A stretch of DNA of 39,178 nucleotides from a virus (lineage: Duplodnaviria; Caudoviricetes): positions 1 through 39,178 of the IMG/VR virus record IMGVR_UViG_3300026196_000016, one strand, 5' to 3'. The first letter of the stretch is position 1, and each line of letters begins with the position of its first letter. The notes under the pieces were generated by a model, which had not been told where the DNA came from, ran no database searches, and saw only the letters and a list, made by a program, of their open reading frames with translations. Of this stretch, positions 1,624-38,584 are shown in pieces. The position numbers and the translations under genes are program-made.

Positions 1624-2021
1624 GAGTCGTTCGCCCGTGCCAGTGTCACACCCTGCACCAGATCGCTTGTATGGATGTCGAGCACATAATCCAGCAGGTT
1701 TTCAGGATTACTCCAGTCGATTTCCGCCGGTGCATCCGCCGTCAACCATTCACGCGGGATGTCCTGAATCACCATTGCCAGCAAGACATTGCGTTCATCG
1801 ATCAATTCGTTGATCCGACTGCCCGCCTCCATCCGCCCAACTCGTAAAGTCGCCTGTTCATCTTCCGTCAGATCATCACGTTCGGGAGCCGTCGCCACCG
1901 TTACCGCTTGCTGTAGTTCAGCGTCAATCTTGAACCACCGGCTACCCCACCGTCGCGATACCTGCGAAAAGTCGCAAACGACTTCCGGCGAAACTTCCAT
2001 CGTCTTTCCATTTTTAGACAT
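1590..2021 (-). CDS. Tail assembly chaperone (gpG-like)
   Basis: Lies between major tail and tape measure genes with a slippery site near its 3' end; ATG 2021 (MSKNGK) is the likelier start than 2051. Confidence 0.8.
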   Translation of the reverse strand: MSKNGKTMEVSPEVVCDFSQVSRRWGSRWFKIDAELQQAVTVATAPERDDLTEDEQATLRVGRMEAGSRINELIDERNVLLAMVIQDIPREWLTADAPAEIDWSNPENLLDYVLDIHTSDLVQGVTLARANDSKNLRGGTANH

Positions 2022-2048
2022 CTCGTCATAAGCACCTTTCTCTAGACC
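2021..2048. other. dif/lox-like 28-bp site
   Basis: TCTCGTCATAA GCACCT TTCTCTAGACC. Confidence 0.6.
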
Positions 2049-2067
2049 CAATTAATTCCCGTGATGG

Positions 2068-2490
2068 CTAGAATGTATCGCCATCGACCGGACGTGCTGT
2101 CGGAGTATCGCTCGCCATGAATGTTACCTCGAACTTTTGCAGAGGTTTTTGAATACCTGCATTCGGTCCGCTGATTGCGCTCACGCGCATATTGCAAGCA
2201 AATTTCGGTTCGCCGGTGGCATTGCCACTCGGACCGTAAATCACCGCGAATTCATCACCCGGCTTGATCTTTGCCATCGCCGTCGTCCGCGTTGCATCAT
2301 CATGCACCAGTCCCAGTTTAAGCGTATAGTCGTTTAAACCGGATAGCCGCTGTTTGGTCGCTTGACCGGCTCCCGCTGTCGATTCCACCAGATCATTTGT
2401 CTGATCGAATACAATTTCATCGGTATAGATAGCCGATACATCCAAGCCACCCAGGCTTAAAAATACGTCGTTCGTGTTAATTGAAGTCAC
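2068..2490 (-). CDS. Major tail (tube) protein
   Basis: 140 aa, beta-rich, with an ESTAGAG...RLSGLND segment typical of tail tube proteins; synteny. Confidence 0.75.
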   Translation of the reverse strand: MTSINTNDVFLSLGGLDVSAIYTDEIVFDQTNDLVESTAGAGQATKQRLSGLNDYTLKLGLVHDDATRTTAMAKIKPGDEFAVIYGPSGNATGEPKFACNMRVSAISGPNAGIQKPLQKFEVTFMASDTPTARPVDGDTF

Positions 2491-2956
2491 TTTTATCCTC
2501 CATGCGAATCATAAACTCATAGCCGTACTCGAAATATTTGATGCCATATTCCTTATTAGGTTCAATGCGGATCGCCCGCCCTGCCGTTACCGTTGTGAAT
2601 GTCCACTCGCTATGTGTGCCGATGCTCCTGTAATCCGCGTCGGTTGACGCCAGATTCCCGCGTCGGTCCTGTGACCCGCTTTCGTTCAACAGGTCGTAAA
2701 TCCGCGAGCTTGCCCGTTCACACCATTCCCCGTCAGCACTAATCGCCTGCACCTTGACCGTAAGCACACGATTTGAGCGGTTCCCGCGTTGCGCTCCATC
2801 CTCATCACTGCCTATGCGGATCACCACCCAGCCCGACGCCCGATCGAAGATATTCGATGGTGCGAATTTGCTGTAGACGTGTGTTCCCCACTTATCACCG
2901 CGTAAGGTGTTACTCATCACAAATAAAGCCGCGTCAGGAGCTTGATACGTCGTCAT
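2477..2956 (-). CDS. Tail terminator / tail completion protein
   Basis: Synteny and size (159 aa). Confidence 0.6.
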   Translation of the reverse strand: MTTYQAPDAALFVMSNTLRGDKWGTHVYSKFAPSNIFDRASGWVVIRIGSDEDGAQRGNRSNRVLTVKVQAISADGEWCERASSRIYDLLNESGSQDRRGNLASTDADYRSIGTHSEWTFTTVTAGRAIRIEPNKEYGIKYFEYGYEFMIRMEDKSDFN

Positions 2957-3360
2957 AGCGTAAGATACGCTTTCGCCATACCCGGAAACTCATTTTTGAG
3001 TTGATCAAATGCCGGTTGGATAAACGGACGATTTTTCATCGTGCTATCTTCTAGCTCCAGCCCGTATTCCATCCCGAAGATTTTGCGCGTCGATTGTCCC
3101 GCCTCTTCCCATCGGAGCGAATTGCTTAATGCTCCCGTGTCAATATTCGGCGGATAACCCGGCTGGCTGGCGGTATGTGTCCGTGTCCCGCGTTGATGTA
3201 TACGTCCCGCCGGACTCGTATTGAACGATGTTTTCATGATCGTGATCGCCCGTTCTGCCCCGGCGGATAACAACCGTCCCGCTTTAATCGGTTCCTCACG
3301 TAACACACGATCATAGCCGCTCAAATCTACCGTGATTTCGATTCCGCTACTCATTATCAT
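2953..3360 (-). CDS. HK97 gp10-like neck protein
   Basis: HTASQPGYPPNIDTGALSNS, YGLELE and RPFIQPAF motifs. Confidence 0.8.
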   Translation of the reverse strand: MIMSSGIEITVDLSGYDRVLREEPIKAGRLLSAGAERAITIMKTSFNTSPAGRIHQRGTRTHTASQPGYPPNIDTGALSNSLRWEEAGQSTRKIFGMEYGLELEDSTMKNRPFIQPAFDQLKNEFPGMAKAYLTL

Positions 3361-3733
3361 TACCTCGAATGCGCTTGACTGTTACCTGTAAATCCGCCGC
3401 GTCCGTGCGATCATCGGTCATATCGACTACCTGATATTTTCTATCGCCTACCGTAATCCGATAATCCTGCTCCACCGTCGTTCCAACTGCGAATATAATG
3501 CGGTACATATCCACCATCGCATCGGCTTGACCTACTTCCATCCAACTTTCAGTGCGCCTACTCCGTGCGTCAATCACCCGGCAGGCTACGCCCGTGTCAA
3601 CTAGCGTGTAGGCGTTTTCAACGGGAGCACCTAAACGATCAATCGCGTTAATATCACGCTTTTCAATCGTCGCTGTCTCCGTCAGGAATGTAGCAAGACG
3701 CCGCTGAATTGCCGTCAGATACCGACTGCTCAT
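3347..3733 (-). CDS. Head closure / head-tail adaptor
   Basis: Synteny; C-terminal DYRITVGDRKYQVV pattern of head-closure proteins. Confidence 0.7.
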   Translation of the reverse strand: MSSRYLTAIQRRLATFLTETATIEKRDINAIDRLGAPVENAYTLVDTGVACRVIDARSRRTESWMEVGQADAMVDMYRIIFAVGTTVEQDYRITVGDRKYQVVDMTDDRTDAADLQVTVKRIRGNDNE

Positions 3734-3755
3734 AATAAACCACTTTATCTAGACC
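3728..3755. other. dif/lox-like 28-bp site
   Basis: GCTCATAATAA ACCACT TTATCTAGACC. Confidence 0.65.
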
Positions 3756-3778
3756 AATTGATAAATTGTTTTTTGCGC

Positions 3779-4183
3779 CTAATACAGCGTGTCACCATCG
3801 TATAGCGCGTCATAATCCGGTAAATCATAGTCAGGTGTTGCATGTTGTGCCGAATCGTTTCTATACCGGTTGACGACGCCGCTTGTCACCCGCGAGATGC
3901 CGAATTCGTTGAGTTTCTCGTTCAGAAGCTTTTCGAGTCCTGCCACAGCCCGCGAGCTGTCAACCTGTAACCAGTCTGCTTTAAAATCCGGTTCACTTGA
4001 TAATTCGGCTATCTTGCCTCGTAACAGGCTAATAACCGCCGCTTTCACTGTGCTCTGATCCGCTAAGACCATCGCTATTTCTTCATCGGTGAAGATCGCC
4101 GATGCTTCCACCGTATCACGGATGTGATAGCGGATTAGCGTTGTATCGCTTGGTGTCGCCGATGGTGAGTAAGTAAATGTCAT
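3779..4183 (-). CDS. Head-tail connector protein
   Basis: MTFTY...IRYHIRDT...FTDEEI N-terminal pattern; synteny. Confidence 0.7.
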   Translation of the reverse strand: MTFTYSPSATPSDTTLIRYHIRDTVEASAIFTDEEIAMVLADQSTVKAAVISLLRGKIAELSSEPDFKADWLQVDSSRAVAGLEKLLNEKLNEFGISRVTSGVVNRYRNDSAQHATPDYDLPDYDALYDGDTLY

Positions 4184-4186
4184 CGT

Positions 4187-4651
4187 CTACTTCTTTAACC
4201 AGAACGTCCGCAAAAACAGATCACTCGTTGCCGTATAGGTTGGCGTTCCATCGCAAACCAGATACCCGTACAGCTTCCCGGACGGAATCCCGAAGACATC
4301 GTTACTACCGTCTGCCTCTGCATATGCGTTACCGTTGATCGTCACATAGGTATCGATCGCAATTGGCGCACATACCATCTTTTTCAAATCAGCCACCAAT
4401 AAGGCGGTTGCAAATGCACCATTATCAGCAATCGTCGTTGGCACATCATCGAATAAATACAGCTTCATATTCGCCTTTTCGTTGTCGTCATCGATCAATA
4501 AGACGCGATCAAGCAGTAAACCGCCCTCGATAAGATGATTCGGTGTAAATGTCAACAATCCACCGACAACATCACTGGCGGAGTACGCCCCGGCTGTAAT
4601 CAGCAACGTTTTATCAATCGTCTGGAATGTATTACTCATCTGCTTCTCCAT
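4187..4651 (-). CDS. Hypothetical virion-associated protein
   Basis: 154-aa ORF in the head operon, beta-rich composition. Confidence 0.5.
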   Translation of the reverse strand: MEKQMSNTFQTIDKTLLITAGAYSASDVVGGLLTFTPNHLIEGGLLLDRVLLIDDDNEKANMKLYLFDDVPTTIADNGAFATALLVADLKKMVCAPIAIDTYVTINGNAYAEADGSNDVFGIPSGKLYGYLVCDGTPTYTATSDLFLRTFWLKK

Positions 4652-4688
4652 TCAAAAATGGGGTATATCTTACATACCCCATTTTTGA
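4652..4688. terminator. Intergenic hairpin (possible terminator or processing site)
   Basis: TCAAAAATGGGGTAT-ATCTTAC-ATACCCCATTTTTGA, a perfect 15-bp stem. Confidence 0.55.
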
Positions 4689-5612
4689 TTAGGTTGATAG
4701 GGCGGTTGGAACGATGGTTCCAGATTCGTCGACAGCATTGACCACATAGTTTTCTGTGTTCAATGTTGCGCCCGGATCGAACGCCGTTTCCGGTGCCGTC
4801 GCATACAGCGTAAACGCCTGATTACCTGCCGTAATGCCGGTTGTATCGTCGTGATGATCGAGAGTTAATCCGGCTGTTGTATCCAGATTCTCAATCAGGT
4901 TGTTCAACACAGCCGCATTCGTGGACGCCGCGCTGGTTCCAGCGTTGCCGCTGATCGTCGCCGTTGTGTAGTCGCCACGAAATTCGCAATTACGAATCGT
5001 ACAATCGACTGTCGCATCAATACGAATCGCGTTATTGGTTCCCGCTGTTGCATTCGCAATGAACCGGCAATTTTCAACCACTACCCGTGTTGCTGCGTCA
5101 ATATCCAACATTTGCAGGAATTCGAGAATCGCGCTTCCTACCTCGAAATCACACCCGCGCAAAGTAACGTCATTGGCGGTAATGGTGACACCGCTCACGA
5201 TGTTAGCCACTGCTCCAAGGAACACCAGCCCGCTAACAAGGATATTCGCCGCGCTAATCGGGATTCGGCTTGCGGTTGCGCTGAAACTCAACACCGGGCG
5301 ATTGCGTCCGTGTCCCAAGCCGATAATACTGATACCCGCCACATCCAACACAAGCGACGTAGCCGCGCTGATTGTCTCTGCGTGTCCCGGCATGACAATA
5401 ATCACATCACCTTGACTGGCAGTACACAGATTGACCGCCTGATCAATCGTTGCTTTCGGGCGTGATGGCTCTTTACCATCGTAGCCATTGCTTCCCGTGC
5501 TACTATGTACGAAATACACGTCTCCCGTTGTTGTCGGAATGCCATTGCCGGGTAAAACCGGCAGTCCAAACGAACTCACGCCATTCGGGTATGCTGTAAG
5601 TTTTGTCATCAT
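4689..5612 (-). CDS. Right-handed beta-helix (pectin-lyase-like) protein, possible head fibre
   Basis: YFVHSSTGSNGYDG...PKATIDQAV...GDVIIVMPG cap followed by VTLRGCDF, VVENCRF and CTIRNCEF rungs; directly after the capsid gene. Confidence 0.75.
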   Translation of the reverse strand: MMTKLTAYPNGVSSFGLPVLPGNGIPTTTGDVYFVHSSTGSNGYDGKEPSRPKATIDQAVNLCTASQGDVIIVMPGHAETISAATSLVLDVAGISIIGLGHGRNRPVLSFSATASRIPISAANILVSGLVFLGAVANIVSGVTITANDVTLRGCDFEVGSAILEFLQMLDIDAATRVVVENCRFIANATAGTNNAIRIDATVDCTIRNCEFRGDYTTATISGNAGTSAASTNAAVLNNLIENLDTTAGLTLDHHDDTTGITAGNQAFTLYATAPETAFDPGATLNTENYVVNAVDESGTIVPTALST

Positions 5613-5631
5613 AAATACCTTTCTCTAGACC
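5604..5631. other. dif/lox-like 28-bp site
   Basis: TGTCATCATAA ATACCT TTCTCTAGACC. Confidence 0.6.
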
Positions 5632-5693
5632 TCTCTAATTGTCGGAATTTACCCCTCCCCAACCGGGGGAAGGATCAATTGTGAAGACAATTA

Positions 5694-6605: not shown

Positions 6606-6616
6606 GATTGAGTCTC

Positions 6617-7066: not shown

Positions 7067-7146
7067 AGCTATGATTTACACAATGACATCCCGTCAATTA
7101 AGCCCTGGGGCTTACTCTGTCTTACGTGGTTGGGCATCTCGCCCGT

Positions 7147-7848: not shown

Positions 7849-7884
7849 GAAATTAACTATCTCTCTACAATCTAAATCATCTCC

Positions 7885-7912
7885 TCTCTAAATAACGAAC
7901 TTTATATAGAGA
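7885..7912. other. dif/lox-like 28-bp site
   Basis: TCTCTAAATAA CGAACT TTATATAGAGA. Confidence 0.7.
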
Positions 7913-8392: not shown

Positions 8393-8394
8393 CC

Positions 8395-8419
8395 AAAAAC
8401 ACCCCATTTTCAGGGGTGC
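8395..8419 (-). terminator. Rho-independent terminator downstream of the tRNA
   Basis: Minus strand CACCCC-TGAAAAT-GGGGTG-TTTTT; an identical copy lies at 10506-10529. Confidence 0.7.
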
Positions 8420-12045: not shown

Positions 12046-12073
12046 TATCTACATAATGCTCATTATTTCGACA
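12046..12073. other. dif/lox-like 28-bp site
   Basis: TATCTACATAA TGCTCA TTATTTCGACA. Confidence 0.72.
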
Positions 12074-13208: not shown

Positions 13209-13236
13209 GTTCTAAATAATTTGTTTTCTGTCGATT
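13209..13236. other. dif/lox-like 28-bp site
   Basis: GTTCTAAATAA TTTGTT TTCTGTCGATT. Confidence 0.6.
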
Positions 13237-14794
13237 AGATTTTCGATGGAGCCGCCACCGCTCCCGGAACGCCGTTGAGGTTCGCGCCGAAATTCAACGC
13301 ATTCCCCACACCCGGCAGATTCAAGCCCGCCAGCACTTGATTCGCTTGTGCCTGTGACCGGTCTAGGATCGTCTGTCGCTTGCTTGCATCCAGATCGATC
13401 ACATCGCCGATCATATCGAGATACAGCGTCTTATCTTCCAGCTTATCATATACCATGTTCGCCTCCTGGAATGTCTCCAGATCGTTCCTCACCTGGGCAT
13501 CCTGCCAGTGACAATTAAACAGGTCGATCATCGGCGGCTTTTTGGTGGCGAATGCTGATTCTACCCGGTGCATGAGGCTCATCACATCTTCCCACGAATT
13601 TCCAAGGATCACCTGTGCATTTCGCACTTTAGCGAGCAAACCCTTATCACGTTCTTTCAGTGCTTCCCCGCTGGAGGAATCGCTTCCTAGTTGACCGCTC
13701 ACTGGCGTGTCCGAAATATCCCCGATGAAGTCAACCAACCGCTCCAACACCTTAATAAAGGATTGCGGATCACCCGGATTGATGCTTGATAGATCAACAT
13801 ATTGCAGAAGGCTAGGATCACCGTCCGCGTTTGCTGTGATAATATCGCCCGGTGCAATCGTCGGAGGTGGCACGAATCCTTTCGCAAATAGCAGAAGGAA
13901 TCCGGTCAATTCGCAGGACATCACCATAGAGACACTCACACGGTTAAGCATATCCTGTAGATTGATGATCTTCAGTAATTCCGACTGCCCCACGTTATCC
14001 CCGTCTTCCCGTTCTGCCGCAAAATGTACCACCGGCACACCCAGCGGTTTTTGACTGACGGGATCAATCCAGGGGATACCCGTCTCAACGACTGTCAGAT
14101 CGCCGCCGTTGATGTCCATCGTATATTTATCAATATGATCGGCATAGTATACGTTGATCTGTTTTGTTTCCTTGCCGGTATAGAATATCTTGATCGCCGC
14201 GTACAATTCATCGGGATCAGCCCTGTCATAGACCGGGATCATGCCCACATCCCCATCATATGCACGCTCGTAATACATGCGTGAGGTCATCGTAGTTTCG
14301 TCGAATGCCACCATCACGAACACATCACCGTCCCGCGATTCCGCCTTATGCACCTTGATCTGTAGCGCATCGAAGCGGTTCAGCTTTAGCCGATCATCTA
14401 CCCACATCTGCCCCGCGTTAATTACCTCCCCCTGCGTAGCGGGGGGAACAGAGGGGGGAGTCTGCGTAGCGGGGGGAACAGAGGGGGGAATCTGCATAGC
14501 GGAGGGGCTAGGGGTGGGGATGGTTTCACTCGCCTCAATCTGCTTGACGACCAACCGCTCGCTTTTCTTCCGCGCTACTTTCTTGGTATAGTCAATCGAA
14601 AAATGCTCTAATACGTCGCTCTTGAGATTAAGCATCCGTTTCATGGTTTCCGTGAGGTAAGTCCGCTGTTGACCCTTGGTGTATTGCCGGTAGAGCGCGA
14701 TACGCCGCCCCCACAGATCGATCTCCTGTGCCCAATCAACAGCCACATAGTCCTTAAATAATTGTTCGTATAATTCACCAAGCATTTTGTACAC
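13235..14794 (-). CDS. Portal protein (SPP1-like)
   Basis: PLGVPVVHF, SEL..IINLQDMLN and SSGEALK motifs; directly after terL. Confidence 0.9.
   Translation of the reverse strand: MYKMLGELYEQLFKDYVAVDWAQEIDLWGRRIALYRQYTKGQQRTYLTETMKRMLNLKSDVLEHFSIDYTKKVARKKSERLVVKQIEASETIPTPSPSAMQIPPSVPPATQTPPSVPPATQGEVINAGQMWVDDRLKLNRFDALQIKVHKAESRDGDVFVMVAFDETTMTSRMYYERAYDGDVGMIPVYDRADPDELYAAIKIFYTGKETKQINVYYADHIDKYTMDINGGDLTVVETGIPWIDPVSQKPLGVPVVHFAAEREDGDNVGQSELLKIINLQDMLNRVSVSMVMSCELTGFLLLFAKGFVPPPTIAPGDIITANADGDPSLLQYVDLSSINPGDPQSFIKVLERLVDFIGDISDTPVSGQLGSDSSSGEALKERDKGLLAKVRNAQVILGNSWEDVMSLMHRVESAFATKKPPMIDLFNCHWQDAQVRNDLETFQEANMVYDKLEDKTLYLDMIGDVIDLDASKRQTILDRSQAQANQVLAGLNLPGVGNALNFGANLNGVPGAVAAPSKI
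14424..14520. repeat. REP-like / 30-bp tandem repeat inserted in frame in the portal gene
   Basis: CTGCGTAGCGGGGGGAACAGAGGGGGGA twice plus a variant; encodes PTPSPSAMQIPPSVPPATQTPPSVPPATQGE. Confidence 0.8.
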
Positions 14795-16106
14795 CGCTCG
14801 TTACTTGACCATATGGTTTATCTTCGCCCATAATCGCATAGCGTAACGCATCCATCGCATGATCGTTCACTTTCATCGGCACATCACGGATACCACTCGT
14901 ATTGCTTGCCCACTGGTATTGTTCAAATTCGATGATCGTGTTCGCCGCCTCGCGTGATACCATCAATCGCGGTTGATTGTCTGCCTGTATCACCAGCCGG
15001 TTTTGTATCTTCTGGATTCCTGTCTCAACCGTGTTATCTGCCCCTAGTGCCTTCACGCCCGCCTGCTTGTTGAATTCCTTGATATAATCCGGCTTACTCG
15101 GATCACAATAGAACGTCTCGATATTCCACGTATTGCGCAAGTCTTTCGCCAGTGACGCCCATTCTTCGATTCGCCTCTGTCGTTGGTACGCCTCATACAG
15201 CACATACGCCCGTCCATCGTAATCGATCCCCACTACCAGAATCACGCCCGGATGAGCAAATCCCCAATCGACACCCGCGATTACCCGCTTGAACGACACT
15301 GGCATAACGACCCGTGTATGGCGATCCCGGTCAAACAGTTGGTAGATTAATCCCTCGTGCGCAATGAATTCGCCTTCAAGCTCCTGAAGCGCAAAATCAC
15401 CCGCATAAGACGCCTGCCATTCTTCGACAATCTCCACCTCAAGAAAAAGATTGTCGGCACTCCGTACCTTGATAATCTTGAATCCGCGCCGGGGATCACG
15501 GACGTACACCTGCCATAGCCAATTTCGTCCTTTGGGAGTCGTCGTTAGCCAATCATGCCCCATTTTCCCGCCCTGCCGCAGACGCCCGATCATGATGTTG
15601 CGCACGTCCTTGCCATACATCGCCGCCTCATCACCCCACCACCACGCCGCCGATGGACCGCGCAATAGTTCAGGATTCGACGTGCTACGCCACAGAATCT
15701 CGCTTCCATTCTTGAGACGCATCTCACCCGTAGCCCGATTCATCCCCTCAATATATCGATCCGCCACTTCATAAAATGTTCGCAAGCTGGCATCGCGTAA
15801 CATGGGGTATGTCGGAGCCGTCACAATACCTAGATTCGGTGTGTCAATCCGCTCCTGCCCGATCCATCCATACGCCGCCCGGATCGCTCGCATGGCACCG
15901 CCGCGTGTTTTCCCGCTCCCGATGCCACCGATCATCGCCAGATGTTTGTCATTCGCCCGGATGAATTCCGCTTGCTTGGGGTGACGCTCGTCGATTTCGC
16001 GCATGGAATCAAAAAGCGGCGGATTAGTGAAGACATTCACCAGCCGCGCCGCTAGATTTGTTCCAAGAGTTTTTTGAAGCTTTACATTGCTTCCCGATGC
16101 ACTCAT
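14775..16106 (-). CDS. terL: Terminase large subunit (PBSX-like)
   Basis: Walker A GGIGSGKT, Walker B WWWGDEA, TTTPKG, nuclease motifs GVDWG and DHAMDALRY. Confidence 0.95.
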   Translation of the reverse strand: MSASGSNVKLQKTLGTNLAARLVNVFTNPPLFDSMREIDERHPKQAEFIRANDKHLAMIGGIGSGKTRGGAMRAIRAAYGWIGQERIDTPNLGIVTAPTYPMLRDASLRTFYEVADRYIEGMNRATGEMRLKNGSEILWRSTSNPELLRGPSAAWWWGDEAAMYGKDVRNIMIGRLRQGGKMGHDWLTTTPKGRNWLWQVYVRDPRRGFKIIKVRSADNLFLEVEIVEEWQASYAGDFALQELEGEFIAHEGLIYQLFDRDRHTRVVMPVSFKRVIAGVDWGFAHPGVILVVGIDYDGRAYVLYEAYQRQRRIEEWASLAKDLRNTWNIETFYCDPSKPDYIKEFNKQAGVKALGADNTVETGIQKIQNRLVIQADNQPRLMVSREAANTIIEFEQYQWASNTSGIRDVPMKVNDHAMDALRYAIMGEDKPYGQVTSGVQNAW

Positions 16107-16109: not shown

Positions 16110-16137
16110 ATTCTACATAATTCCGGTTATGACGATT
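16110..16137. other. dif/lox-like 28-bp site
   Basis: ATTCTACATAA TTCCGG TTATGACGATT. Confidence 0.68.
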
Positions 16138-18118: not shown

Positions 18119-18146
18119 TGTCTACATAACATCAGTTATTTAGACC
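18119..18146. other. dif/lox-like 28-bp site
   Basis: TGTCTACATAA CATCAG TTATTTAGACC. Confidence 0.78.
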
Positions 18147-18332: not shown

Positions 18333-18360
18333 GTGTCGATAGAAGTCGCTTATTTCGACC
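18333..18360. other. dif/lox-like site (degenerate)
   Basis: GTGTCGATAGA AGTCGC TTATTTCGACC; alternatively a 5-bp spacer with arm TGTCGATAGAA. Confidence 0.5.
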
Positions 18361-20106: not shown

Positions 20107-20134
20107 TGTCCTCATAAACGCTTTTATCTAGACT
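20107..20134. other. dif/lox-like 28-bp site
   Basis: TGTCCTCATAA ACGCTT TTATCTAGACT. Confidence 0.7.
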
Positions 20135-20184: not shown

Positions 20185-21681
20185 CTATTCCTCACCCTCC
20201 AGTTTCTCAATTTCCTTATCCAGGATCGTTCCCATGTCGTTAAATAATTCCGCGATGGCATCTAGACAACGACTCCAGATCGTCTCCATTGCCGCGTTTG
20301 TCATCTCGAAAACATCATTAACAAATGTGACGTTACCCGCTTGTACCTGCTCGCGGATATATTCCCCCGTGATGGAGCGCAAAAACTGTAATGCTTTTGC
20401 CTCCTGCTTTAATTCAAATTGATAAGCAAACACATCCGCTAAGTTATTCAATACCCATAGCGTTTGTTTGCGCTCTGTGACTGCACTCAATGGAATCTGA
20501 CCGTCGTCGATTATCCGCCGCTGTGGTTGTTCCCATTCGTCATCAGTTTCATAGCGGTAAGATCGACCTTGACCCACCTGTAAATCACCCTCATTTGTGG
20601 CAGACGGTTCAGGACTAACATTTCGCTTGATGTGAGATACAAACGGCGTAAGTGTCTCATTTTCATCGGCAGGGGAAGGACTTATGTCAACTACCGTTGA
20701 CATATCTCCATTTTCAACCGTCCAATCATCTTCATTTTCGACGGTGGGGGAGGGCGGTTTTACGGTTCTTGTTTGGGGATGAAGAATCAACCGACAGCGG
20801 AACTCGCGCCAATTGCCTTCATCCGCATTATTCCATTCATGATCTGGCAGATTCAGCAAATCGCGGTATTGTCCCACCTGTTGACGGCTCTTTAATCCCG
20901 TCGCTATCAGGATATGCCCCATAAATCCCCGCTTAATCTGGAACATATTTCCATCTGCCACCTGTGCATAAAACGGACGGTCACACCCACCCGCATTCAC
21001 CAGTGTATCAAATGTGTCAAATGACACTCCGTCATCATCCTTGTACATATCCATGATGAGTAACGCCAACTGCCGCGCCATCTCAATAGCGTTCAAGGGA
21101 TGACGGTTCCCGTTTTCCTGTGCCTGCTTCCAGACATCGCGCTTTTTATCTTCCGCCGGGATTCTGGCGTATAATTCACCGTCTACATGCTCGCGCAATA
21201 GATGGAAGGCTAGCCATCGCCGCTCGCCCATGATGATCGTCCCGCCCTGCCCGGACTTTTCGATCTGGATAGGGTTGATCAATCCGTCGCGGTGGATACC
21301 CGCCGCCAGTTTGGCCAGACTCACGAATTTATCCGCGATCGGTTGCGTGATGGGATCAATATCGAGTCCGTCGTGATTCCCGTGCAGGATCGCCCGCAAT
21401 GCAATCGGCGTTTCCAATTCTTCCTCCGCCTTGATAGCCCACCGTCGTAACAAGCCCGGCACATCTTGAGCTAGTCCGCCCCACATGCCGCGAACCGATG
21501 TCGGTACGGCTCGCCTTGGTTGTGTGATGTCCGCTTTCAATTGCGAAATGTCCACCGTCGGAATCACCCGCTTGTCTGATTTCGGCAGATCGCCATAAAG
21601 GATTTTATCTGCATCACTCAAACTGAGCGGTTCATAGTTATCATTCCCGAATGGATCAGTCGCATCGTTTAATTTATCCAT
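20185..21681 (-). CDS. parB: ParB-like partition protein
   Basis: QPR, GLINPI and GERRW arginine patch; overlaps the parA stop. Confidence 0.8.
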   Translation of the reverse strand: MDKLNDATDPFGNDNYEPLSLSDADKILYGDLPKSDKRVIPTVDISQLKADITQPRRAVPTSVRGMWGGLAQDVPGLLRRWAIKAEEELETPIALRAILHGNHDGLDIDPITQPIADKFVSLAKLAAGIHRDGLINPIQIEKSGQGGTIIMGERRWLAFHLLREHVDGELYARIPAEDKKRDVWKQAQENGNRHPLNAIEMARQLALLIMDMYKDDDGVSFDTFDTLVNAGGCDRPFYAQVADGNMFQIKRGFMGHILIATGLKSRQQVGQYRDLLNLPDHEWNNADEGNWREFRCRLILHPQTRTVKPPSPTVENEDDWTVENGDMSTVVDISPSPADENETLTPFVSHIKRNVSPEPSATNEGDLQVGQGRSYRYETDDEWEQPQRRIIDDGQIPLSAVTERKQTLWVLNNLADVFAYQFELKQEAKALQFLRSITGEYIREQVQAGNVTFVNDVFEMTNAAMETIWSRCLDAIAELFNDMGTILDKEIEKLEGEE

Positions 21682-22459
21682 GAACCATATCCTCCACCCG
21701 ATGCACCAGCCGCCACATCTGCTTGACCGCTTCCCCTTTTGGTTGATAGGAATAGAGCAGACGCGATAAGAAACTCGCCTGTGTCCACACCGTCAAATCC
21801 TTGATCGGTTCAAACACATCATCGCGGAATTTCTGATTCAGGAATTCCAGTGCCTTCTTATGTGATATCAATTGACCGTCATACTTATTCGGCAAAACGC
21901 CTAAAATCAATGGCGTCTCGGTTTGGTATTTCGGAGCCAGTTTTTCTAGCCCTGCCATTGTCTTGAGCGATTCATTCAACCCATCGAGGCTGAAATTCTC
22001 CGTCTCGGTGGGATACAAAACATGGTCAGTCGCCAGATACACCACCACATGAAATAGAGATGGGGTGGGCGCAGTATCAATCACCACATAATCAAACACC
22101 GGGGCTATTTCTGCCAATCGATTTGCGAGCACCATCGGATCACTCATATTTTCGCCGATGGAGCGCGTTTCCTTGTTACTTGGCAGTACCACCAGCGTTC
22201 CCTTGCCATCCTTATCACTTCCCCACACTTCCCGCGCTGGAACAACAAGCACATTCCGCCAATCGGTGTCTTCCCGCACCAGCAAGTCATAGAGTGCCGG
22301 GCTTTTCTTCAGCCCTAATGCCCGTGTTGCTTGTCCCTGTGCATCGGCGTCGATTAACAACACCCGCGCGCCCTGCAATGCCAAGCCCGCCGCCAGATGC
22401 GTACTCAGTGTCGTTTTCCCGACACCGCCCTTCTCATTAAATAAACCTATAGTTTTCAT
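21674..22459 (-). CDS. parA: ParA/Soj partition ATPase
   Basis: KGGVGKTT, LIDADAQG and DYVVIDTAP. Confidence 0.95.
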   Translation of the reverse strand: MKTIGLFNEKGGVGKTTLSTHLAAGLALQGARVLLIDADAQGQATRALGLKKSPALYDLLVREDTDWRNVLVVPAREVWGSDKDGKGTLVVLPSNKETRSIGENMSDPMVLANRLAEIAPVFDYVVIDTAPTPSLFHVVVYLATDHVLYPTETENFSLDGLNESLKTMAGLEKLAPKYQTETPLILGVLPNKYDGQLISHKKALEFLNQKFRDDVFEPIKDLTVWTQASFLSRLLYSYQPKGEAVKQMWRLVHRVEDMVHG

Positions 22460-22772: not shown

Positions 22773-23250
22773 ACGCCTTGATTTTGCGCCGGATTTTCGC
22801 CCGCCGATCGTTCGCTTGTGCAATCTTGTCAATCACTGGCGATACCCGCCGCTCATGTTTCTCTGGCAGGCTTCCCGCAATCAATTGATCGATGTTCTTC
22901 TCACTCGCGTTAACCGCCTTTTTACGCGATTTCCGTTTCGCTGGCGTGTGATTCTCTTTCTTTTTCCGCCAGTATTCCTGTTGACAATCAACACACATCG
23001 TTAACTGTTTCCCTGTCTTGGATACCATTCGCGGCGCACCACAAACGACACACACCCGATCGAACAACGGAACAACCCGATCATTTTCCGGTTCATCGTA
23101 GACACATGCATTTTCAATATCTTTCCACCATGCCTGTTGGTGTCCATCATCACAAGTGAGTAGAACCGCATCATATAGATGTCCATCACGGATAATCGGT
23201 GTTCGTTTCAATTCCAGTCCGTCTTTGTGGCATAAAGGACAATCTTTCAT
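22759..23250 (-). CDS. Zinc-finger-like hypothetical protein
   Basis: CPLC, CDDGH, CVVC and CVDC; basic C-terminus; ATG 23250 after AAGGAG. Confidence 0.65.
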   Translation of the reverse strand: MKDCPLCHKDGLELKRTPIIRDGHLYDAVLLTCDDGHQQAWWKDIENACVYDEPENDRVVPLFDRVCVVCGAPRMVSKTGKQLTMCVDCQQEYWRKKKENHTPAKRKSRKKAVNASEKNIDQLIAGSLPEKHERRVSPVIDKIAQANDRRAKIRRKIKAFDHD

Positions 23251-23277
23251 CTCTAAATAACTCCTTTTATCTAGACT
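23250..23277. other. dif/lox-like 28-bp site
   Basis: TCTCTAAATAA CTCCTT TTATCTAGACT. Confidence 0.75.
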
Positions 23278-23887: not shown

Positions 23888-24802
23888 ATGAAACTCAAAT
23901 CGGCTGTAGAACTATTCCTAAATCGCATCGATAACACCGGCACCAAAAAAGCCTACAAACAGGCGACAACTTATTTGATGAAATATCTGGGTACAGATCG
24001 CGCGTTAGCATCCATTGATGCTGAAACCTTCCAGAAAATATTCTGGATACCGCTACTGGAGGATCATAATACCTGGTCGATTGCTACCCGCCGTAAGCAC
24101 ATAAAGAGCCTGCGCGCTTTATTCAATCTGTGTATTGCACAGGGCTACATCTCCATTAACCCTGCGCATATCGTCAAATTACCCTCCATCAACGCCGCCG
24201 TTCCCCGCGATCGCGCCATATCCGAAATCGAGTATGAACGTCTGCTCGAATATGCACGCTTTACATCACCCCGTAATTACGCCTTACTTCTCTTCCTTGC
24301 CGACACTGGCTGTCGTGCCATTGCCGCAGCCGGTCTACGACTGGAAGACATTGACCTAACCTCCAAATCGGCCTGGATTACGGGTAAAGGCGATAAATCA
24401 CGTACTGTCTATTTCGGAGATGAATGCCGCATTGCGCTTCAGAATTGGCTACGCATGAAAAAAAAGAAAAGCGGTGCGTATGTTTTCCGCGAACGTCCGG
24501 GAGACAAACCGATCAAACCAGCCGCCATATCTCAAGCCGTCTGGAGACTGGCGAAAACCTGTGGCATTGATCACCCGGTAGGCTCACACCGTTTCCGTCA
24601 TCGCCTGGGACACCGGCTCGCCGATGCGCACGTTCCGCCGTCTGTCGCTCAAAACGCATTAGGGCATACCGACGTAAGAACGACGCTCGATCATTACTAT
24701 CCGAATGATGATGAGAGAGTAAGGGAAGCCGTGCAATCCTTGGCTACCCGTAAACAGGAACAACCGAAAGTTATTCAGCTATTCAAAGAGGGCAGGAAAT
24801 AA
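23888..24802 (+). CDS. int: Tyrosine integrase
   Basis: R (TGCR), K (GKGDK), HRFR, LGH and catalytic Y (TTLDHY); attP core immediately downstream. Confidence 0.92.
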   Translation: MKLKSAVELFLNRIDNTGTKKAYKQATTYLMKYLGTDRALASIDAETFQKIFWIPLLEDHNTWSIATRRKHIKSLRALFNLCIAQGYISINPAHIVKLPSINAAVPRDRAISEIEYERLLEYARFTSPRNYALLLFLADTGCRAIAAAGLRLEDIDLTSKSAWITGKGDKSRTVYFGDECRIALQNWLRMKKKKSGAYVFRERPGDKPIKPAAISQAVWRLAKTCGIDHPVGSHRFRHRLGHRLADAHVPPSVAQNALGHTDVRTTLDHYYPNDDERVREAVQSLATRKQEQPKVIQLFKEGRK

Positions 24803-24820: not shown

Positions 24821-24856
24821 AACAAGAGGTCCTCGGTTCAAATCCGAGTACCCCGA
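24821..24856 (+). other. attP core: 3' half of a host tRNA, probably tRNA-Pro
   Basis: AACAAGAGGTC CTCGG-TTCAAAT-CCGAG TACCCCG A is a variable loop, T-arm and acceptor 3' strand ending G72 A73. Confidence 0.8.
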
Positions 24857-25004
24857 CTCTTAATGAACCTTATCCAACTCTCACCGTAAAACGGAGAGTC
24901 CTCATTGACATCGGGAACGTAAATAATTAAATAGACTTATTTTTATTTGTAATCAGCACTCGATCACATTTGTCATCTTTTGTTGAGTCGCCCCTGGTAG
25001 ACTT

Positions 25005-25286
25005 TTACACGGGAATAGCTGGCAGGGGACTTTCTTCTGTGTCGTCTGACGATTCCTCTCTTGTGAGTAAATCCCCAACGTCACAGTTTAAATATTCACA
25101 CAGGGCATCGATGATTCTTTGATCGAATCGAGTCACCGTATTGTTGTACCATGAATAGATTGTTGGTTTTCCAAGATTAGTTTCTTCGATAACATTAATT
25201 GGGCTGATCCGTCGTTCCTCCCGCCGTGCTTTTTTAGCGAGAAGTTCCGCAAATCGGTTCTTTGTTTTCTTTCGCTTATTTGACAT
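25005..25286 (-). CDS. Cro/CI-type HTH regulator (candidate immunity repressor)
   Basis: ETNLGKPTIYSWYNN and IDALCEYLNCDVGDLL; AGGA RBS. Confidence 0.85.
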   Translation of the reverse strand: MSNKRKKTKNRFAELLAKKARREERRISPINVIEETNLGKPTIYSWYNNTVTRFDQRIIDALCEYLNCDVGDLLTREESSDDTEESPLPAIPV

Positions 25287-25975: not shown

Positions 25976-26003
25976 AGTCTAGAGAAAACCATTTATCAGG
26001 AGA
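25976..26003. other. dif/lox-like 28-bp site upstream of recombinase 2
   Basis: AGTCTAGAGAA AACCAT TTATCAGGAGA. Confidence 0.62.
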
Positions 26004-26012: not shown

Positions 26013-27140
26013 GTGAATACACTCACCATCCTTGATCAAAGTATATCAGAGGATCAATTTACTGACACCTCTTGGTTGCGATATTTCGACATAAAGCAGG
26101 CGTTACGCGCCGTTCACGCCCACATTGCCGCCCTACCCTCTGACCGCACTCCCGAACGGCACACCCGTAATTTATACGTCGCCGGGATAAAATATTTTCT
26201 CGAATGGGCTGGCGGATCATCCTTATCGTTGCCTACCGCCGATCTGATTGCGGAATACATCGCCCACTTATCCAAGGAAAAGGAGTGGACACGGGGCGGT
26301 AAAACCTATTACGGCATATCCACCGCGTCCATCGCCAGTCGCTACATCGCGCCCTTGCGTATCTTCCTTACTAAGCTGGCAGGACAGAAGATCACCGGCG
26401 TTCATGGCATCGAACGCGATTTTGTCACCGATTGCCGCGAGCACATCCGCGCCGCCATCGCCGTCAAGCCACCCCGCAATCAGGAGACAACCAATATCGC
26501 GCCCCTCTGGAACCCCAAATTTACCCGTCTGACATTAACACAGGTCAACGCTGTGCTCCGTGCCTGTAATACCAAAACCCTGCCCGGCTTACGCGATTAT
26601 GTCATCATGCGCACGGCGTTTGAAACCGCCTTCCGTCTATCCGAACTCGGGCGCATAACGCCCAATAGCATCACGCTCGAAGGCGATAACGTGCTCATTA
26701 CCGTGCGCGGCAAACGCTCGAACATTGATCCCATCGCCATTAGTCACGAACTTTTTTCTTATATCAAGCAATACGTGAATCTATACAACGCTCTCGCAGG
26801 TGAGCAGGCACAACATATCGAAGACGATATACCCATCATTCAAAGTCTATTGACCGGCGGACATATCCCGGCAATTGGTGCCACCGATTCCGGCATGACT
26901 GGCGATGGATTGCGCCGCTTGATCTGGAGGCGGACGGCTGGCGTGTTGGGTGATGAATACGGACTTAAACCGCATGATACCCGCCGCACATTTGCCGCCA
27001 TCGCCTATGAAATGGGAATGCCCCTGCCCGACATTGCCAAGGCATTACGCCATAAAGATAGTTCTGTGACCCTGCATTACATCGGACAGAAACCGGATTA
27101 TGATTCAACCCTGATCACCAATTATGTTAAAATTGGTTAA
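26013..27140 (+). CDS. Second tyrosine recombinase (Xer/Cre-like)
   Basis: R (TAFRLSEL), K (RGKR), HDTR, H (LRH) and Y (VTLHY) all present. Confidence 0.9.
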   Translation: MNTLTILDQSISEDQFTDTSWLRYFDIKQALRAVHAHIAALPSDRTPERHTRNLYVAGIKYFLEWAGGSSLSLPTADLIAEYIAHLSKEKEWTRGGKTYYGISTASIASRYIAPLRIFLTKLAGQKITGVHGIERDFVTDCREHIRAAIAVKPPRNQETTNIAPLWNPKFTRLTLTQVNAVLRACNTKTLPGLRDYVIMRTAFETAFRLSELGRITPNSITLEGDNVLITVRGKRSNIDPIAISHELFSYIKQYVNLYNALAGEQAQHIEDDIPIIQSLLTGGHIPAIGATDSGMTGDGLRRLIWRRTAGVLGDEYGLKPHDTRRTFAAIAYEMGMPLPDIAKALRHKDSSVTLHYIGQKPDYDSTLITNYVKIG

Positions 27141-27372
27141 TCAATCGGCATTATATGGAGATGAAAGAAATGAGGATGAAATGCAATTAGCAACTATTAT
27201 ACTAAAGGCAATATCAGATATGGAATCTATCGAAGGTCATGAGCTTAAATTTGAAAGCAAAACACGTTTACTCGAAGGCTTATGTGATGAAATCACACAA
27301 TACATGCTGAATTATAGCGAACGGGATAGATACCTATTTGGATGGCATAGCAGGGGAGGACTAAGACCATGA
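27124..27372 (+). CDS. Small hypothetical protein
   Basis: Likely ATG 27181 after GAGGA; stop overlaps the MTase ATG. Confidence 0.55.
   Translation: MLKLVNQSALYGDERNEDEMQLATIILKAISDMESIEGHELKFESKTRLLEGLCDEITQYMLNYSERDRYLFGWHSRGGLRP
27134..27161. other. dif/lox-like site (degenerate) at the stop of recombinase 2
   Basis: TGGTTAATCAA TCGGCA TTATATGGAGA. Confidence 0.5.
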
Positions 27373-29757: not shown

Positions 29758-29785
29758 TGTCGAAATTATCGGCATTATGTAGATC
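29758..29785. other. dif/lox-like 28-bp site
   Basis: TGTCGAAATTA TCGGCA TTATGTAGATC. Confidence 0.68.
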
Positions 29786-33448: not shown

Positions 33449-33476
33449 CCTCTATATAAAGTTCCTTATGTAGACA
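33449..33476. other. dif/lox-like 28-bp site
   Basis: CCTCTATATAA AGTTCC TTATGTAGACA. Confidence 0.75.
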
Positions 33477-35349: not shown

Positions 35350-37176
35350 TTATGCCGCCTTTCCGCGTGTAATGATGTTCTGTACCATGATTTGAAACCT
35401 GATTTCGCCCTGCCCGCCGGTACAACTGGCGACGATCGGATGGGTTGTCTGGAATCCTCCGACTTTATTGCGCACTTCATCGGTGATGTTAATTTCGAGG
35501 TTGGTTAACCCCGCGCCAGATGTATCGAGGTTGCTCGCCACCGTCGTTCCGTTAACCGTAATCGACACATGATCCGGGTAATCCGTGTCTGTATAAACTC
35601 CATACTCTTGAGCACCATCTGCGCTAACAGTATAAATATCCCCCACTGATGAGGCGACGGCCAGAACAACCGTCGTCGATCCGACCGCGCCCGCATCCGC
35701 CGCCGCCGAAAAAATATTATTGCCTGCCAGATCAGCATTCGAGCTTATCCAGTTAAACATCTGATGCCTATGGGCCGCGCTTTTCGCCGTGCTCCCAAAC
35801 GGTGTTGTTGTGATATACAACGTTACCTTATCAATATCAACCGTTTGATCGTCGATGATAAACTCGCTCGTGCCGGTGTTGCTGGCATCCATCGGCGACT
35901 GATACGGACCCCACACATACTTATTGAGCGTCGCTTGATAACCCACTTCCTGAACGTCGATCGCGTCCACCTGTCCCACAATGATTTGTTCTTCCCCCAT
36001 CGCCACCCGGTCAATGTTCGATAAATCCAGAGCAACGCTTTCGCCGCTCATGCTCAAACTTTCGTCAACGCTCAAAATCCAGTAATCGCCGCTGATGTCC
36101 ACCAGTGTATTTGGCACACCGTTTTGATTGACCACGCCGATATAATCCACAGCCACCTTATCCCCCACCGCAAAATTGACATCCGGCTTAAATACATGCA
36201 CCGTCAATTGTTCCACCGGGTCCTTATGCCGTGCTAGCCATTCATTCGCCGCGATTGCCAGATCATCGCTCGCGTTAGCAACTTCAGTTGCACTGGCTCC
36301 CGTTGGCGCGATTTTTTTAAAGTTTACTCGTGCCTCAATTGTCCCGTAAGCCGTGATACTGGTGGAATCGGAATAATAATAGACCGTTCGCCCGTCGGGA
36401 CCCGTTTCACTCTGCCGTGTATAGGTCGTGACCGCTGTTGATTGTTCCAGCGTCAGGAAGCTGTCTCCATCCCCTGCACCGCTTGGATAAATCTTGTTCA
36501 CGATGTCCGCGCTGTTGTCGAGAACTTTCATTGATTCAATCGGGATTACCGTTGACGCCCGTTCCACTTCGGGATGATCGCCCTCAAATTTACGTAGCGT
36601 ATAGCCATTGCTGTCACCGAATGCCCCGAATTCCAGCGTTTTAAACGTGCTGGTGAGGCGCATGTGATAGCCTTTTTGACTGGCTATCGCCTGTAATGCC
36701 TTTAATACACTCGCCCCGTCAAATCGTGTGCTGATATTCCCGCTCACACTATCATAACTCGCCGTCCATCCTGCCAGCGTCAGCAATGCCGATACCACCG
36801 TCTGCACCGTTTGATCCGCATAAGACCGCGCATAATTCGTTGATTTGTTAAGCAGTAGGCTCATAACATCTGAACCCGTTGCTTTCAACCGAAAACCCTG
36901 GGCATCTTCCACGAACTGCCGTTTCTCAACTACCATTGCACCTTTGAGAATTGGCGTCTTCGGTTCCTCCTGCCACCAGATTTCGACCACTGATTTGACC
37001 GTGAGTAGATCATGCGCCCGTGCCAGAAATTCTAGACCGATCACCGGCGAATCAATATCGATTGACCCGGGTCCATCAAACGCGCGCGTAATCCGTGCTG
37101 TCGCCAGCGGGATCACATTATTTGTTTTAGGCGCACTATACGCCGCGTTGTAAACCTCTGCCCACAGATAAATCAC
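35350..37176 (-). CDS. Baseplate hub / tail spike (Tal-like) protein
   Basis: 608 aa after the Dit-like gene; IVNKIYPSGAG, SITAYG and VGDKV patterns. Confidence 0.72.
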   Translation of the reverse strand: MIYLWAEVYNAAYSAPKTNNVIPLATARITRAFDGPGSIDIDSPVIGLEFLARAHDLLTVKSVVEIWWQEEPKTPILKGAMVVEKRQFVEDAQGFRLKATGSDVMSLLLNKSTNYARSYADQTVQTVVSALLTLAGWTASYDSVSGNISTRFDGASVLKALQAIASQKGYHMRLTSTFKTLEFGAFGDSNGYTLRKFEGDHPEVERASTVIPIESMKVLDNSADIVNKIYPSGAGDGDSFLTLEQSTAVTTYTRQSETGPDGRTVYYYSDSTSITAYGTIEARVNFKKIAPTGASATEVANASDDLAIAANEWLARHKDPVEQLTVHVFKPDVNFAVGDKVAVDYIGVVNQNGVPNTLVDISGDYWILSVDESLSMSGESVALDLSNIDRVAMGEEQIIVGQVDAIDVQEVGYQATLNKYVWGPYQSPMDASNTGTSEFIIDDQTVDIDKVTLYITTTPFGSTAKSAAHRHQMFNWISSNADLAGNNIFSAAADAGAVGSTTVVLAVASSVGDIYTVSADGAQEYGVYTDTDYPDHVSITVNGTTVASNLDTSGAGLTNLEINITDEVRNKVGGFQTTHPIVASCTGGQGEIRFQIMVQNIITRGKAA

Positions 37177-37203
37177 GTCTCAATAATCCCTTTTATGTAG
37201 ATT
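37176..37203. other. dif/lox-like 28-bp site
   Basis: CGTCTCAATAA TCCCTT TTATGTAGATT. Confidence 0.72.
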
Positions 37204-37558
37204 GCTTTCTTGGTGGCTGAACTTCCAGCTTGATCCGTTTTTTGTTGCGTTTGGAATAAATCCCATCGGCACTGAATACCAGATCGCCCGGTTGTTCGTT
37301 CGATGCCCTCAATACGGGATATTGAAATAGCTCGAACGCCCTGTTTTTGTCGATGCGTTCGAGCATCACGACATCGCCTGTATCCGGCGTCTCTACAAGG
37401 CGCAATTCATCGCCTTGCGGCAGGTACAGCGCGCGGAGTTGCGTCCGTAGCCGGTCACTGAGCGTCTGATGTTGTTGCTCCAGTACCCGCAATTGTGCGC
37501 GAACGTCGTCTATATCCTGCATTAATTTTGCCAATCCTGCATATGGATCACTCGCCAT
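37193..37558 (-). CDS. Hypothetical protein between Dit and hub genes
   Basis: 121 aa; bounded by a REP-like hairpin upstream and a dif-like site at its stop. Confidence 0.6.
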   Translation of the reverse strand: MASDPYAGLAKLMQDIDDVRAQLRVLEQQHQTLSDRLRTQLRALYLPQGDELRLVETPDTGDVVMLERIDKNRAFELFQYPVLRASNEQPGDLVFSADGIYSKRNKKRIKLEVQPPRKQST

Positions 37559-37671
37559 GTCTTTATCGCTTTCTTGATAATGTCTTGTCTTAGCTCCATC
37601 GATGGAGCTGAACCATCAATACTTTCTTAACTTTCCCCCTCGCCCATTGGGAGAGGGGTTAGGGGTGAGGG

Positions 37672-38535
37672 CTATATCCACGTATCCCAGAAATCAATCG
37701 TGAATAGTGCATGTCCCGCAAACGTTCCGCTGATATACAGCGTCGTATCGCCTTCAGGAATTTCCAGCCATGCCCCGCTCCCGCGTGTCAATGCGCTTTC
37801 ATCTGTGACCGTATACGTCCGTGCATCGATCTCGATCACATCCGTCGCCGCGAAATTTTTAGTGTATAGCAGGCTATCAACCACTTCACCATACTGGTTT
37901 TTACGTTCGATTAACGGATTGCTAAACGTATCGCTTCCGTTCCCTTCCCATCGAACCCATGCCGCCGCTGGTGCGTTGCCGCGATTCGTGACTGTCACCG
38001 TCGAACCATCCAGCACTGACGATTGATCGAGCTTGAGCGATGGAAGCATCAGCTCCGCGTCATCCCAGTTGAAGCCGTCGTTCCAGAACACCATTTCCGG
38101 CTTGTTGTACCATCTTGCATCGGGACACTGGAACGTCATCTGACACAATTGCTGTAAATGCGGCACACGATTTGCCACTTGCGGACTATTGAATGAGGAT
38201 AAGCTCGCCCACGTCCACATCAATTCCCCGTTTTCGTGCAACTTGAATAACCGTTGCATCCCCCATGATGCCATGCGCCGTAATTGGCTCACATCATAGC
38301 CGATCTGCCCCATGCCCCCGAATTCACCCGTTTTCACCCACGTCACATAACGCACGTTCCCGACTTCGCTCGGACCGCGTCCGAGTCCATATGGCGAAAT
38401 ACCGCCGTCCTTGCCCGGAACATTCGTCGTCGTCTGTCGGATGTTGGCGAAATTATCGCTATATTCGGTTTGATTGCGTTGGATAAACGTCCGACTTTGA
38501 ACGCTTCCCGTCCCGAATCTTACGAGGCTATCCAT
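37672..38535 (-). CDS. Distal tail (Dit-like) protein
   Basis: After the tape measure; VPGKDG, FQCPDARWY, VTNRGNAPA and WLEIPEGDTTL. Confidence 0.78.
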   Translation of the reverse strand: MDSLVRFGTGSVQSRTFIQRNQTEYSDNFANIRQTTTNVPGKDGGISPYGLGRGPSEVGNVRYVTWVKTGEFGGMGQIGYDVSQLRRMASWGMQRLFKLHENGELMWTWASLSSFNSPQVANRVPHLQQLCQMTFQCPDARWYNKPEMVFWNDGFNWDDAELMLPSLKLDQSSVLDGSTVTVTNRGNAPAAAWVRWEGNGSDTFSNPLIERKNQYGEVVDSLLYTKNFAATDVIEIDARTYTVTDESALTRGSGAWLEIPEGDTTLYISGTFAGHALFTIDFWDTWI

Positions 38536-38556
38536 GTAACCTCCCTAGAAATGAGG

Positions 38557-38584
38557 TGTCTATATAAAAGCTCTTATTCAGAAT
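38557..38584. other. dif/lox-like 28-bp site
   Basis: TGTCTATATAA AAGCTC TTATTCAGAAT. Confidence 0.7.

Follow-up and report, generated by a model that had tools for sequence, protein, structure and literature searches.

An evenly spaced lattice of near-uniquely addressed dif/lox-like sites in a family of tailed phages, with a possible role in genome circularisation

The closest described counterparts of the sites considered here are the pdif sites of Acinetobacter Rep_3 plasmids, for which the excerpts of PMC13141974 and PMC11705084 drawn on here describe crossover inside matched spacers and exchange by cointegration and resolution. For an Xer recombinase to act, the spacer must be homologous on that enzyme's side, as set out for VGJphi in part of PMC5357621, and the Cre/loxP system of phage P1 serves multimer resolution, according to an excerpt of PMC10999674. 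The sites described here lie in the IMG/VR virus record IMGVR_UViG_3300026196_000016 (Duplodnaviria; Caudoviricetes), of which the whole 39,178-nucleotide stretch analysed is referred to as the window, and each consists of two inverted 11-bp arms around a 6-bp spacer. The site array is real and family-wide, and its members are very probably addressed recombination sites.

The first-pass annotation of the window had listed 17 such 28-mers, all of which are present where it placed them. An arm matrix built from these 17, with leave-one-out scores computed for each, yields 15 strong sites of 21.8-31.3 bits (leave-one-out 20.0-30.6), the next window position scoring 14.5. The other two entries are of lesser standing, as that at 27134 is weak (leave-one-out score 7.6) and that at 18333 was misregistered, being two good arms at 18334 that flank a 5-bp spacer. 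In 200 local dinucleotide shuffles a mean of 0.12 sites reached at least 15 bits (maximum 1) against 15 in the real sequence, which confirms the enrichment, and spacer lengths of 3-10 other than 6 gave 0-1 sites in the window, in keeping with the Xer/lox-type 11-6-11 anatomy that had been proposed. The exact ATAA-N6-TTAT core is found in ten of the listed sites, as counted before, and 11 times in the window as a whole, with the extra copy at 21588 and a mean of 1.0 (maximum 6) in shuffles. The arm-supplied TAA stops at 12063, 18136 and 37193, the single repeated spacer (TCGGCA, at 27134 and 29758) and the lone arm at 32018 were described correctly, and there is a second lone arm at 28100. The statement that every site sits at a gene junction is true of the 15 strong window sites, which lie at or overlap junctions, but not of the family, where 60 of 218 sites in 26 records fall deep inside called open reading frames (ORFs), some of these calls being doubtful.

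Family members were collected through RecB375, a 375-aa tyrosine recombinase encoded at 26013..27140 (+), searches with which returned 14 viral and 43 metagenome loci, the window itself among them. The window's own matrix has few matches in these loci; the bare core A(T/G)AA-N6-TT(A/C)T, counted over 59 loci of which three are duplicates, occurs 191 times at spacer 6 and 15-32 times at spacers 3-12, and with a family matrix, for which 54 records served as the training set, 227 sites reach at least 16 bits at spacer 6 against 2-6 at other lengths. The two arms are unequal in the family, one ending in AGAA and the other starting with TTAT, with 199 cores of mixed type, 38 and 22 of the two symmetric types and near symmetry in the window itself, and their outer and inner positions match those pdif arms given in Table 1 of PMC13141974. 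Related phages split into those with 2-6 sites per 10 kb and those with almost none: among 143 further loci of at least 8 kb obtained with recombinase, portal and capsid profiles, several being the same records, 41 carry at least 2 sites per 10 kb, 97 carry at most 1 and 5 lie between. The complete circles comprise four with 11-20 sites (the window, G002, G003 and G010), five with 0-2 (G004, G005, G024, G039 and G042) and the chimera G018 (L399-L401), which has 9 sites in its ParAB/replication half and a 25-kb gap over an unrelated structural half. The ParB family is present in every array-bearing record that covers its region, and G016 has ParB and no sites. A window-consensus DNA-pattern scan of viral contigs gave 117 loci, mostly AT-rich singletons, and none of those with at least two matrix matches was GC-matched or array-like; a terminase-seeded search gave 2 loci, neither with sites.

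Variant cores occur in G020 and G052, that of the G020 array (L405-L406) being ACAA-N6-TTGT in a phage whose RecB375 is sister to the window's. In G004, otherwise free of sites, three lie about 500 nt apart (6179-7212) between small ORFs that directly follow RecB375, and a portal fragment of the same phage (L189:11215-13242) is fused to 2′-5′ RNA ligase-like and Mu F-like domains.

The proposal that unique spacers act as addresses is borne out, with the refinement that the address occupies just one half of the spacer. For 241 strong sites in 27 records, with columns shuffled within each genome as the null, the TTAT-side spacer triplet is common to 1 of 1094 within-genome pairs where 14.4 ± 3.6 are expected, and that sole pair belongs to a duplicated region of G001. 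A looser threshold gives 4 of 1489 pairs against 20.1 expected. The other spacer triplet shows no depletion (70 shared pairs, 62.9 expected), and arm and flank triplets show no deficit in the same test. In the window the 15 TTAT-side triplets are all different and the other half repeats 7 times, orientation being uncertain for about six of these near-symmetric sites. The one-sided uniqueness, taken together with the side-homology rule of Xer systems, leads us to infer that the sites are cut, with the TTAT-arm exchange first.

The TTAT-side triplet is also the best-kept segment at matching junctions at every level of divergence. Between relatives of 60-90% protein identity its excess identity is 0.41-0.45, compared with 0.17-0.26 for flanks, arms and the other spacer half, and below 45% it is 0.12-0.23, flanks and arms being close to 0. 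Distant pairs share the triplet in 81 of 547 cases with the scaffold junction included and in 15 of 395 without it (null about 1.3%), and five or six of the six spacer bases are identical in 104 of 989 same-junction pairs (null 0.68%), a comparison in which outer arm positions are at background. The expectation that spacers are conserved by position is accordingly correct for matching junctions in general, although most diverged relatives differ at the same junction. Between G002 at 19370 and G036 at 4966 the arms and near flanks are identical and four of the six spacer bases are not, a pattern that a replacement confined to the spacer would leave.

The even spacing of the sites and their in-frame occurrence within genes, like the one-sided address, had escaped the first-pass annotation. 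In 26 array-bearing records, chosen as long and not near-duplicates, the coefficient of variation of the gaps is 0.14-0.48 in 25 and 0.82 in one, where random placement gives about 0.85, and 24 of the 26 are more even than random gene junctions (p ≤ 0.03). The 244 gaps have a median of 2353 nt, with 11 below 1 kb and 6 above 5 kb, and the window, taken as a circle, has a coefficient of 0.35 and a largest gap of 4161. Five large gaps were examined, and every one contains a candidate below threshold (8.7-12.5 bits), which in three of them stands well clear of the next-ranked position. Internal sites become more frequent with ORF length, from 9 of 309 ORFs of 0.3-0.9 kb through 14 of 142 and 13 of 41 to 15 of 19 above 2.1 kb, in the family ORFs of 21 records. 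They also share codon and phase, at the portal RVNIYY motif in 9 records, the ParB linker in 6, and the tape measure and Dit in 3 and 2 records each, some of these records being close kin. Neighbouring sites have the same orientation in 107 cases and the opposite in 123, without alternation, and orientation relative to transcription is mixed (126 with, 92 against). Two of the larger window gaps hold the lone TTAT arms (28100-28110 and 32018-32028), and two hold weak in-gene candidates, at 21588 in the 5′ end of parB and at 35586 in ORF608.

It is about an even question whether this evenly spaced lattice, with its near-unique addresses, serves a site-specific recombinase in place of homologous recombination, for which the Cre-like RecB375 is the most likely enzyme. 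The phage would package its DNA by headfuls, so that each virion DNA starts elsewhere and its ends repeat a few kb; with a site every 2-3 kb the terminal repeat would nearly always hold one site twice, and by recombining these copies the enzyme could circularise the DNA. Pairing of non-matching sites, and hence deletion or inversion of the genome, would be prevented by the address. The same chemistry could resolve plasmid-prophage dimers and occasionally, where co-infecting relatives have an address in common, trade segments between them. A phage with permuted ends and no annealing protein would need a self-pairing site in every possible repeat, a requirement that would entail bounded gaps, in-frame sites in long genes and unique addresses, all of which are seen, as well as decay of a neighbouring site (18334) and little need to match distant relatives, which are also seen. 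The 15 window sites would cover 71% of 2-kb, 91% of 3-kb and 99.5% of 4-kb repeats, compared with 54, 70 and 80% for 15 random sites. Phage P1 circularises injected DNA by Cre/loxP at a single site. In SPP1, whose genome is 44,016 bp long, a packaged molecule measures about 45.9 kb, and without this redundancy the DNA cannot recircularise, as stated in an excerpt of PMC6316719; the SPP1-type portal (PF05133, above cut-off) and PBSX-like terminase of the window would suit headful packaging, the best family for terL being TIGR01547 (PBSX type) at 74 bits, below the cut-off of 105.

The catalytic residues R-K-H-R-H-Y are kept in both tyrosine recombinases of the window, at R208-K234-H321-R324-H347-Y356 in RecB375. 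The other enzyme, the 304-aa RecA304 (23888..24802, +), is probably the integrase, as its gene is followed by a stretch resembling a tRNA 3′ end (24825..24858, +), a probable attP with an apparent T-arm motif, Rfam and ARAGORN giving no match there. Both proteins score far below every cut-off of the NCBIfam XerC, XerD, XerS and XerA models. RecB375 has 114 homologues, one of them named, from Phototrophicus methaneseepsis, and no match among 50,697 annotated phage records; its predicted structure (mean predicted local distance difference test score 93) has Cre as nearest fold, with a template-modelling score of 0.6-0.7 at 13-14% identity. A site stands directly upstream of its gene, with constant placement and orientation, in 21 rows of dereplicated records, none being seen there in G004 and G005, and the arm consensus follows the RecB375 tree better than those of RecA304, ParA and ParB (partial correlation 0.58, p 0.004, 13 genomes). 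Annealing genes of the AAA_24/RecT kind are found in 0 of 26 array-bearing records and in 5 of 24 others, plus G018 (p 0.02), where four annealing-protein families were sought in 51 records that include many fragments, some of the others being classed from part of a record. An AAA_24 protein, presumably Sak4-like, occupies the RecB375 slot in G018 and G019. In our judgement RecB375 is the acting enzyme with somewhat better than even probability, host XerC/XerD being the candidate to which a clearly smaller share falls.

Several observations weigh against lattice-based circularisation by RecB375. Full coverage needs about 4.2 kb of redundancy (11%), and an SPP1-sized repeat of 2 kb covers 71%. 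Gap size is independent of distance from terL (rho -0.01), although headful series started at pac are only partly permuted. Relatives without arrays have terminase families like those of the array-bearing phages, so that terminase type does not separate the groups, and circularisation has no need of address conservation between genomes. Both G004 and G005 carry RecB375 without a lattice, and the complete G018, which lacks RecB375, still has its 9 even sites in one half. Agreement with the arms is as close for portal and TerS as for RecB375, or closer, and host or lineage may therefore drive the arms. Among complete circles alone, annealing genes occur in 0 of 4 with arrays and in 2 of 5 without (p 0.44). 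The packaging mode is a prediction from assembled contigs, and this, together with the missing terL gradient, keeps the reading at an even balance.

A different emphasis was given by the first-pass annotation, in which the lattice serves mainly for addressed module exchange between co-infecting relatives, and this we regard as unlikely, if the best placed of the alternatives. Cointegration would occur at one shared address and resolution at another, and in-frame sites would permit domain swaps. The retention of whole spacers at shared junctions and of the address triplet at every divergence level is consistent with such exchange, as is the movement of pdif modules in like manner (excerpts of PMC13141974 and PMC11705084). 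Among close relatives 87 sharp alignment ends represent 58 events, of which four are flank switches base-exact at a spacer (G001/L135, G001/L246, L150-151/L152 and G034/L288), and at the AACCGA site all four combinations of left and right flank are found. By distance, 13 events lie within 25 nt of a site, 17 within 40 nt and 41 beyond 40 nt, a nearness that is far above uniform chance but marginal against a gene-end null (p 0.002-0.2 at x1, 0.09-0.6 at x1.5). Site-directed swapping happens, yet most mosaic joints in the sample arose otherwise; the predicted breakpoints inside spacers exist, and module swapping is a minor part of the picture. Without the scaffold junction the triplet is shared in few distant pairs, as noted above; slow spacer change could also stem from the uniqueness constraint or from overlap with Shine-Dalgarno sequences, promoters or codons; and exchange offers no direct reason for the avoidance of both short and long gaps.

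Rearrangements at individual sites were also seen. One low-depth contig of run X3 lacks 1318 nt (27150-28467), starting inside the spacer of the weak site 27134, with only 29 nt on its short side. The cargo at 27151-29774, a DNA methyltransferase and a PAPS-reductase/DndC-like gene of lower GC content and reversed skew, is bracketed by the window's only repeated spacer (27134 and 29758). In G001, 35358-40536 holds a second, inverted RecB375 copy with a junction inside a site spacer, either a natural rearrangement or a misassembly. Contigs of the three runs X1, X2 and X3 showed no joints at strong sites, coverage being small in X2 and X3 and X1 being perhaps the source of the window. The sites at 7885 and 33449 are near-identical and inverted, their spacers differing by one base, that adjoining the TTAT arm; an apparent inversion between 7911 and 33450, suggested by loose ends in run X1, was rejected, since an alignment of the phage's own contig to the second, almost identical site accounts for these ends.

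Less probable again is that host XerC/XerD, activated by FtsK and with XerD acting first, would use the lattice to unlink copies of the ParAB plasmid prophage, or reduce them to monomers, at whatever point the septum catches them, with no part played by the phage recombinases. The unequal AGAA and TTAT arms with their pdif-like positions would fit host enzymes, and a TTAT-side address agrees with passages of PMC11705084, where XerD cuts first at dif, and of PMC5357621, where non-homology on the XerD side blocks XerD exchange. The lattice, moreover, strictly follows neither phage recombinase and co-occurs with the ParB family. Against a host system, one site is enough for dimer resolution, arm cores are not uniform across the phages, G020 having TTGT and the window near-symmetric cores, and a site is fixed upstream of RecB375. 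In the dif list of Kono et al., Chloroflexi are represented by Dehalococcoides only.

Improbable is a lattice of binding-only roadblocks or operators for a repressor, ParB or recombinase, for instance halting motors or spreading clamps at regular intervals, since, although the even spacing, the constant company of ParB and the helix-turn-helix (HTH) repressor gene beside the site upstream of RecB375 would suit it, binding alone gives no cause for the uniqueness of one spacer half, a feature that also defeats the pure operator alternative raised in the first-pass annotation, catalytic residues are complete in both recombinases, orientation relative to transcription is mixed, and G016 has ParB without sites while the arms do not track ParB.

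Along the window, the structural genes carry sites on the minus strand at 2021..2048 (spacer AGGTGC, major tail/ORF153), 3728..3755 (AGTGGT, ORF134/ORF128), 5604..5631 (AGGTAT, major capsid/beta-helix protein), 7885..7912 (AGTTCG, upstream of the putative scaffold gene, a junction at which a site is present in 22 dereplicated records) and 13209..13236 (AACAAA, portal gene 3′ end). Those given on the plus strand with ambiguous orientation are 12046..12073 (TGCTCA, its arm giving the TAA stop), 16110..16137 (TTCCGG, just upstream of terL), 18119..18146 (CATCAG, the top score in the window), 23250..23277 (CTCCTT, or AAGGAG on the minus strand, which fits the window arms better), 29758..29785 (TCGGCA) and 38557..38584 (AAGCTC, tape measure/Dit). 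The relic at 18334..18360 (+), with its 5-bp spacer, is 215 nt from 18119. The remaining sites are 20107..20134 (-, AAGCGT, downstream of parB), 25976..26003 (+, AACCAT, directly upstream of RecB375), the weak 27134..27161 (+, TCGGCA, over the recombinase stop), 33449..33476 (+, AGTTCC, downstream of the tail fibre genes) and 37176..37203 (-, AAGGGA, upstream of ORF608). The sites are not read as sigma-70 promoters because 1-20000 has no excess of promoter-like matches over shuffles (21 vs 27).

The window encodes siphovirus head and tail genes, ParA, ParB, the HTH repressor and the two tyrosine recombinases. The profile-matched terL and SPP1-type portal lie at 13235..16106 (-), parA and parB, for plasmid-prophage partition, at 20185..22459 (-), and the Cro/C1-type repressor, between the two recombinase genes, at 25005..25286 (-). 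The window is a circle of 39,031 bp, since its ends overlap by 147 nt, not quite exactly, and one contig of run X1 spans their junction; its CheckV entry is linear and 47% complete. The phage probably comes from an Anaerolineae host, a suggestion whose sole basis is the named RecB375 homologue from Phototrophicus methaneseepsis, which we place within Anaerolineae. A genome scan for a host prophage gave one match, in Bacteroidales and unrelated, and an Rfam search of 23000-30000 gave no match. ARAGORN calls a tRNA at 8474-8548 (-) with anticodon TTA, which would read TAA, and a 38-nt stretch at 37634-37672 is matched by several unrelated contigs from two runs.

Taken as a whole, the data permit the tentative proposal, which we place slightly short of an even prospect, that this family replaced homologous recombination with a recombination map, in which a Cre-like enzyme acts on triplet-addressed sites, their spacing such that the terminal repeat of any headful contains one, and their passage through essential genes being achieved by codon choice. 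If true, the map closes the incoming genome and sets where relatives trade segments, as a natural counterpart of engineered orthogonal-lox genomes. With the lattice, the old question whether phage mosaic joints are programmed can be put to the test at specified bases, and from the one-sided address it can be predicted which of the strand exchanges is checked first; a recombinase that distinguishes 15-20 sites by a triplet would be a ready orthogonal site set for genome engineering. A literature search whose coverage left out most subscription journals found no tailed phage described as having a dif/lox lattice that is evenly spaced or enters genes.

The components are known, whereas the organisation is new. 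As in the Acinetobacter Rep_3 pdif system (excerpts of PMC13141974 and PMC11705084), the sites are of 11-6-11 form with two different arms, many per replicon and differing spacers. Unlike pdif sites, which bound accessory modules and alternate in orientation, the phage sites do not alternate, cover the whole genome evenly, enter essential genes in frame and, when strong, repeat the TTAT-side triplet in a single duplicated region only; nor are they confined to accessory regions or backbone ends as are Acinetobacter dif modules. The family differs from integrons in that neither recombinase reaches the integron-integrase cut-off (RecA304 46 bits against 265, RecB375 none). It resembles XerS/difSL and XerH/difH, in the sections of PMC5357621 used, in a recombinase of about 355-390 aa, a site adjoining the gene, imperfect arms and a preferred side, but those systems are chromosomal and single-site, and RecB375 scores 22 bits against the XerS model (cut-off 267). 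With P1 it shares a plasmid-prophage with partition genes, a simple tyrosine recombinase and a site just upstream. The P1 genome has a single loxP, built of symmetric 13-bp arms and an 8-bp spacer, whereas the phage family has 11-20 sites per complete array-bearing genome, with unequal 11-bp arms and addressed 6-bp spacers. The multi-site Xer systems known from Acinetobacter plasmids move accessory genes; a lattice that spans a tailed-phage genome, and in which both the spacing and one half of the spacer are under selection, would be a new use of site-specific recombination.

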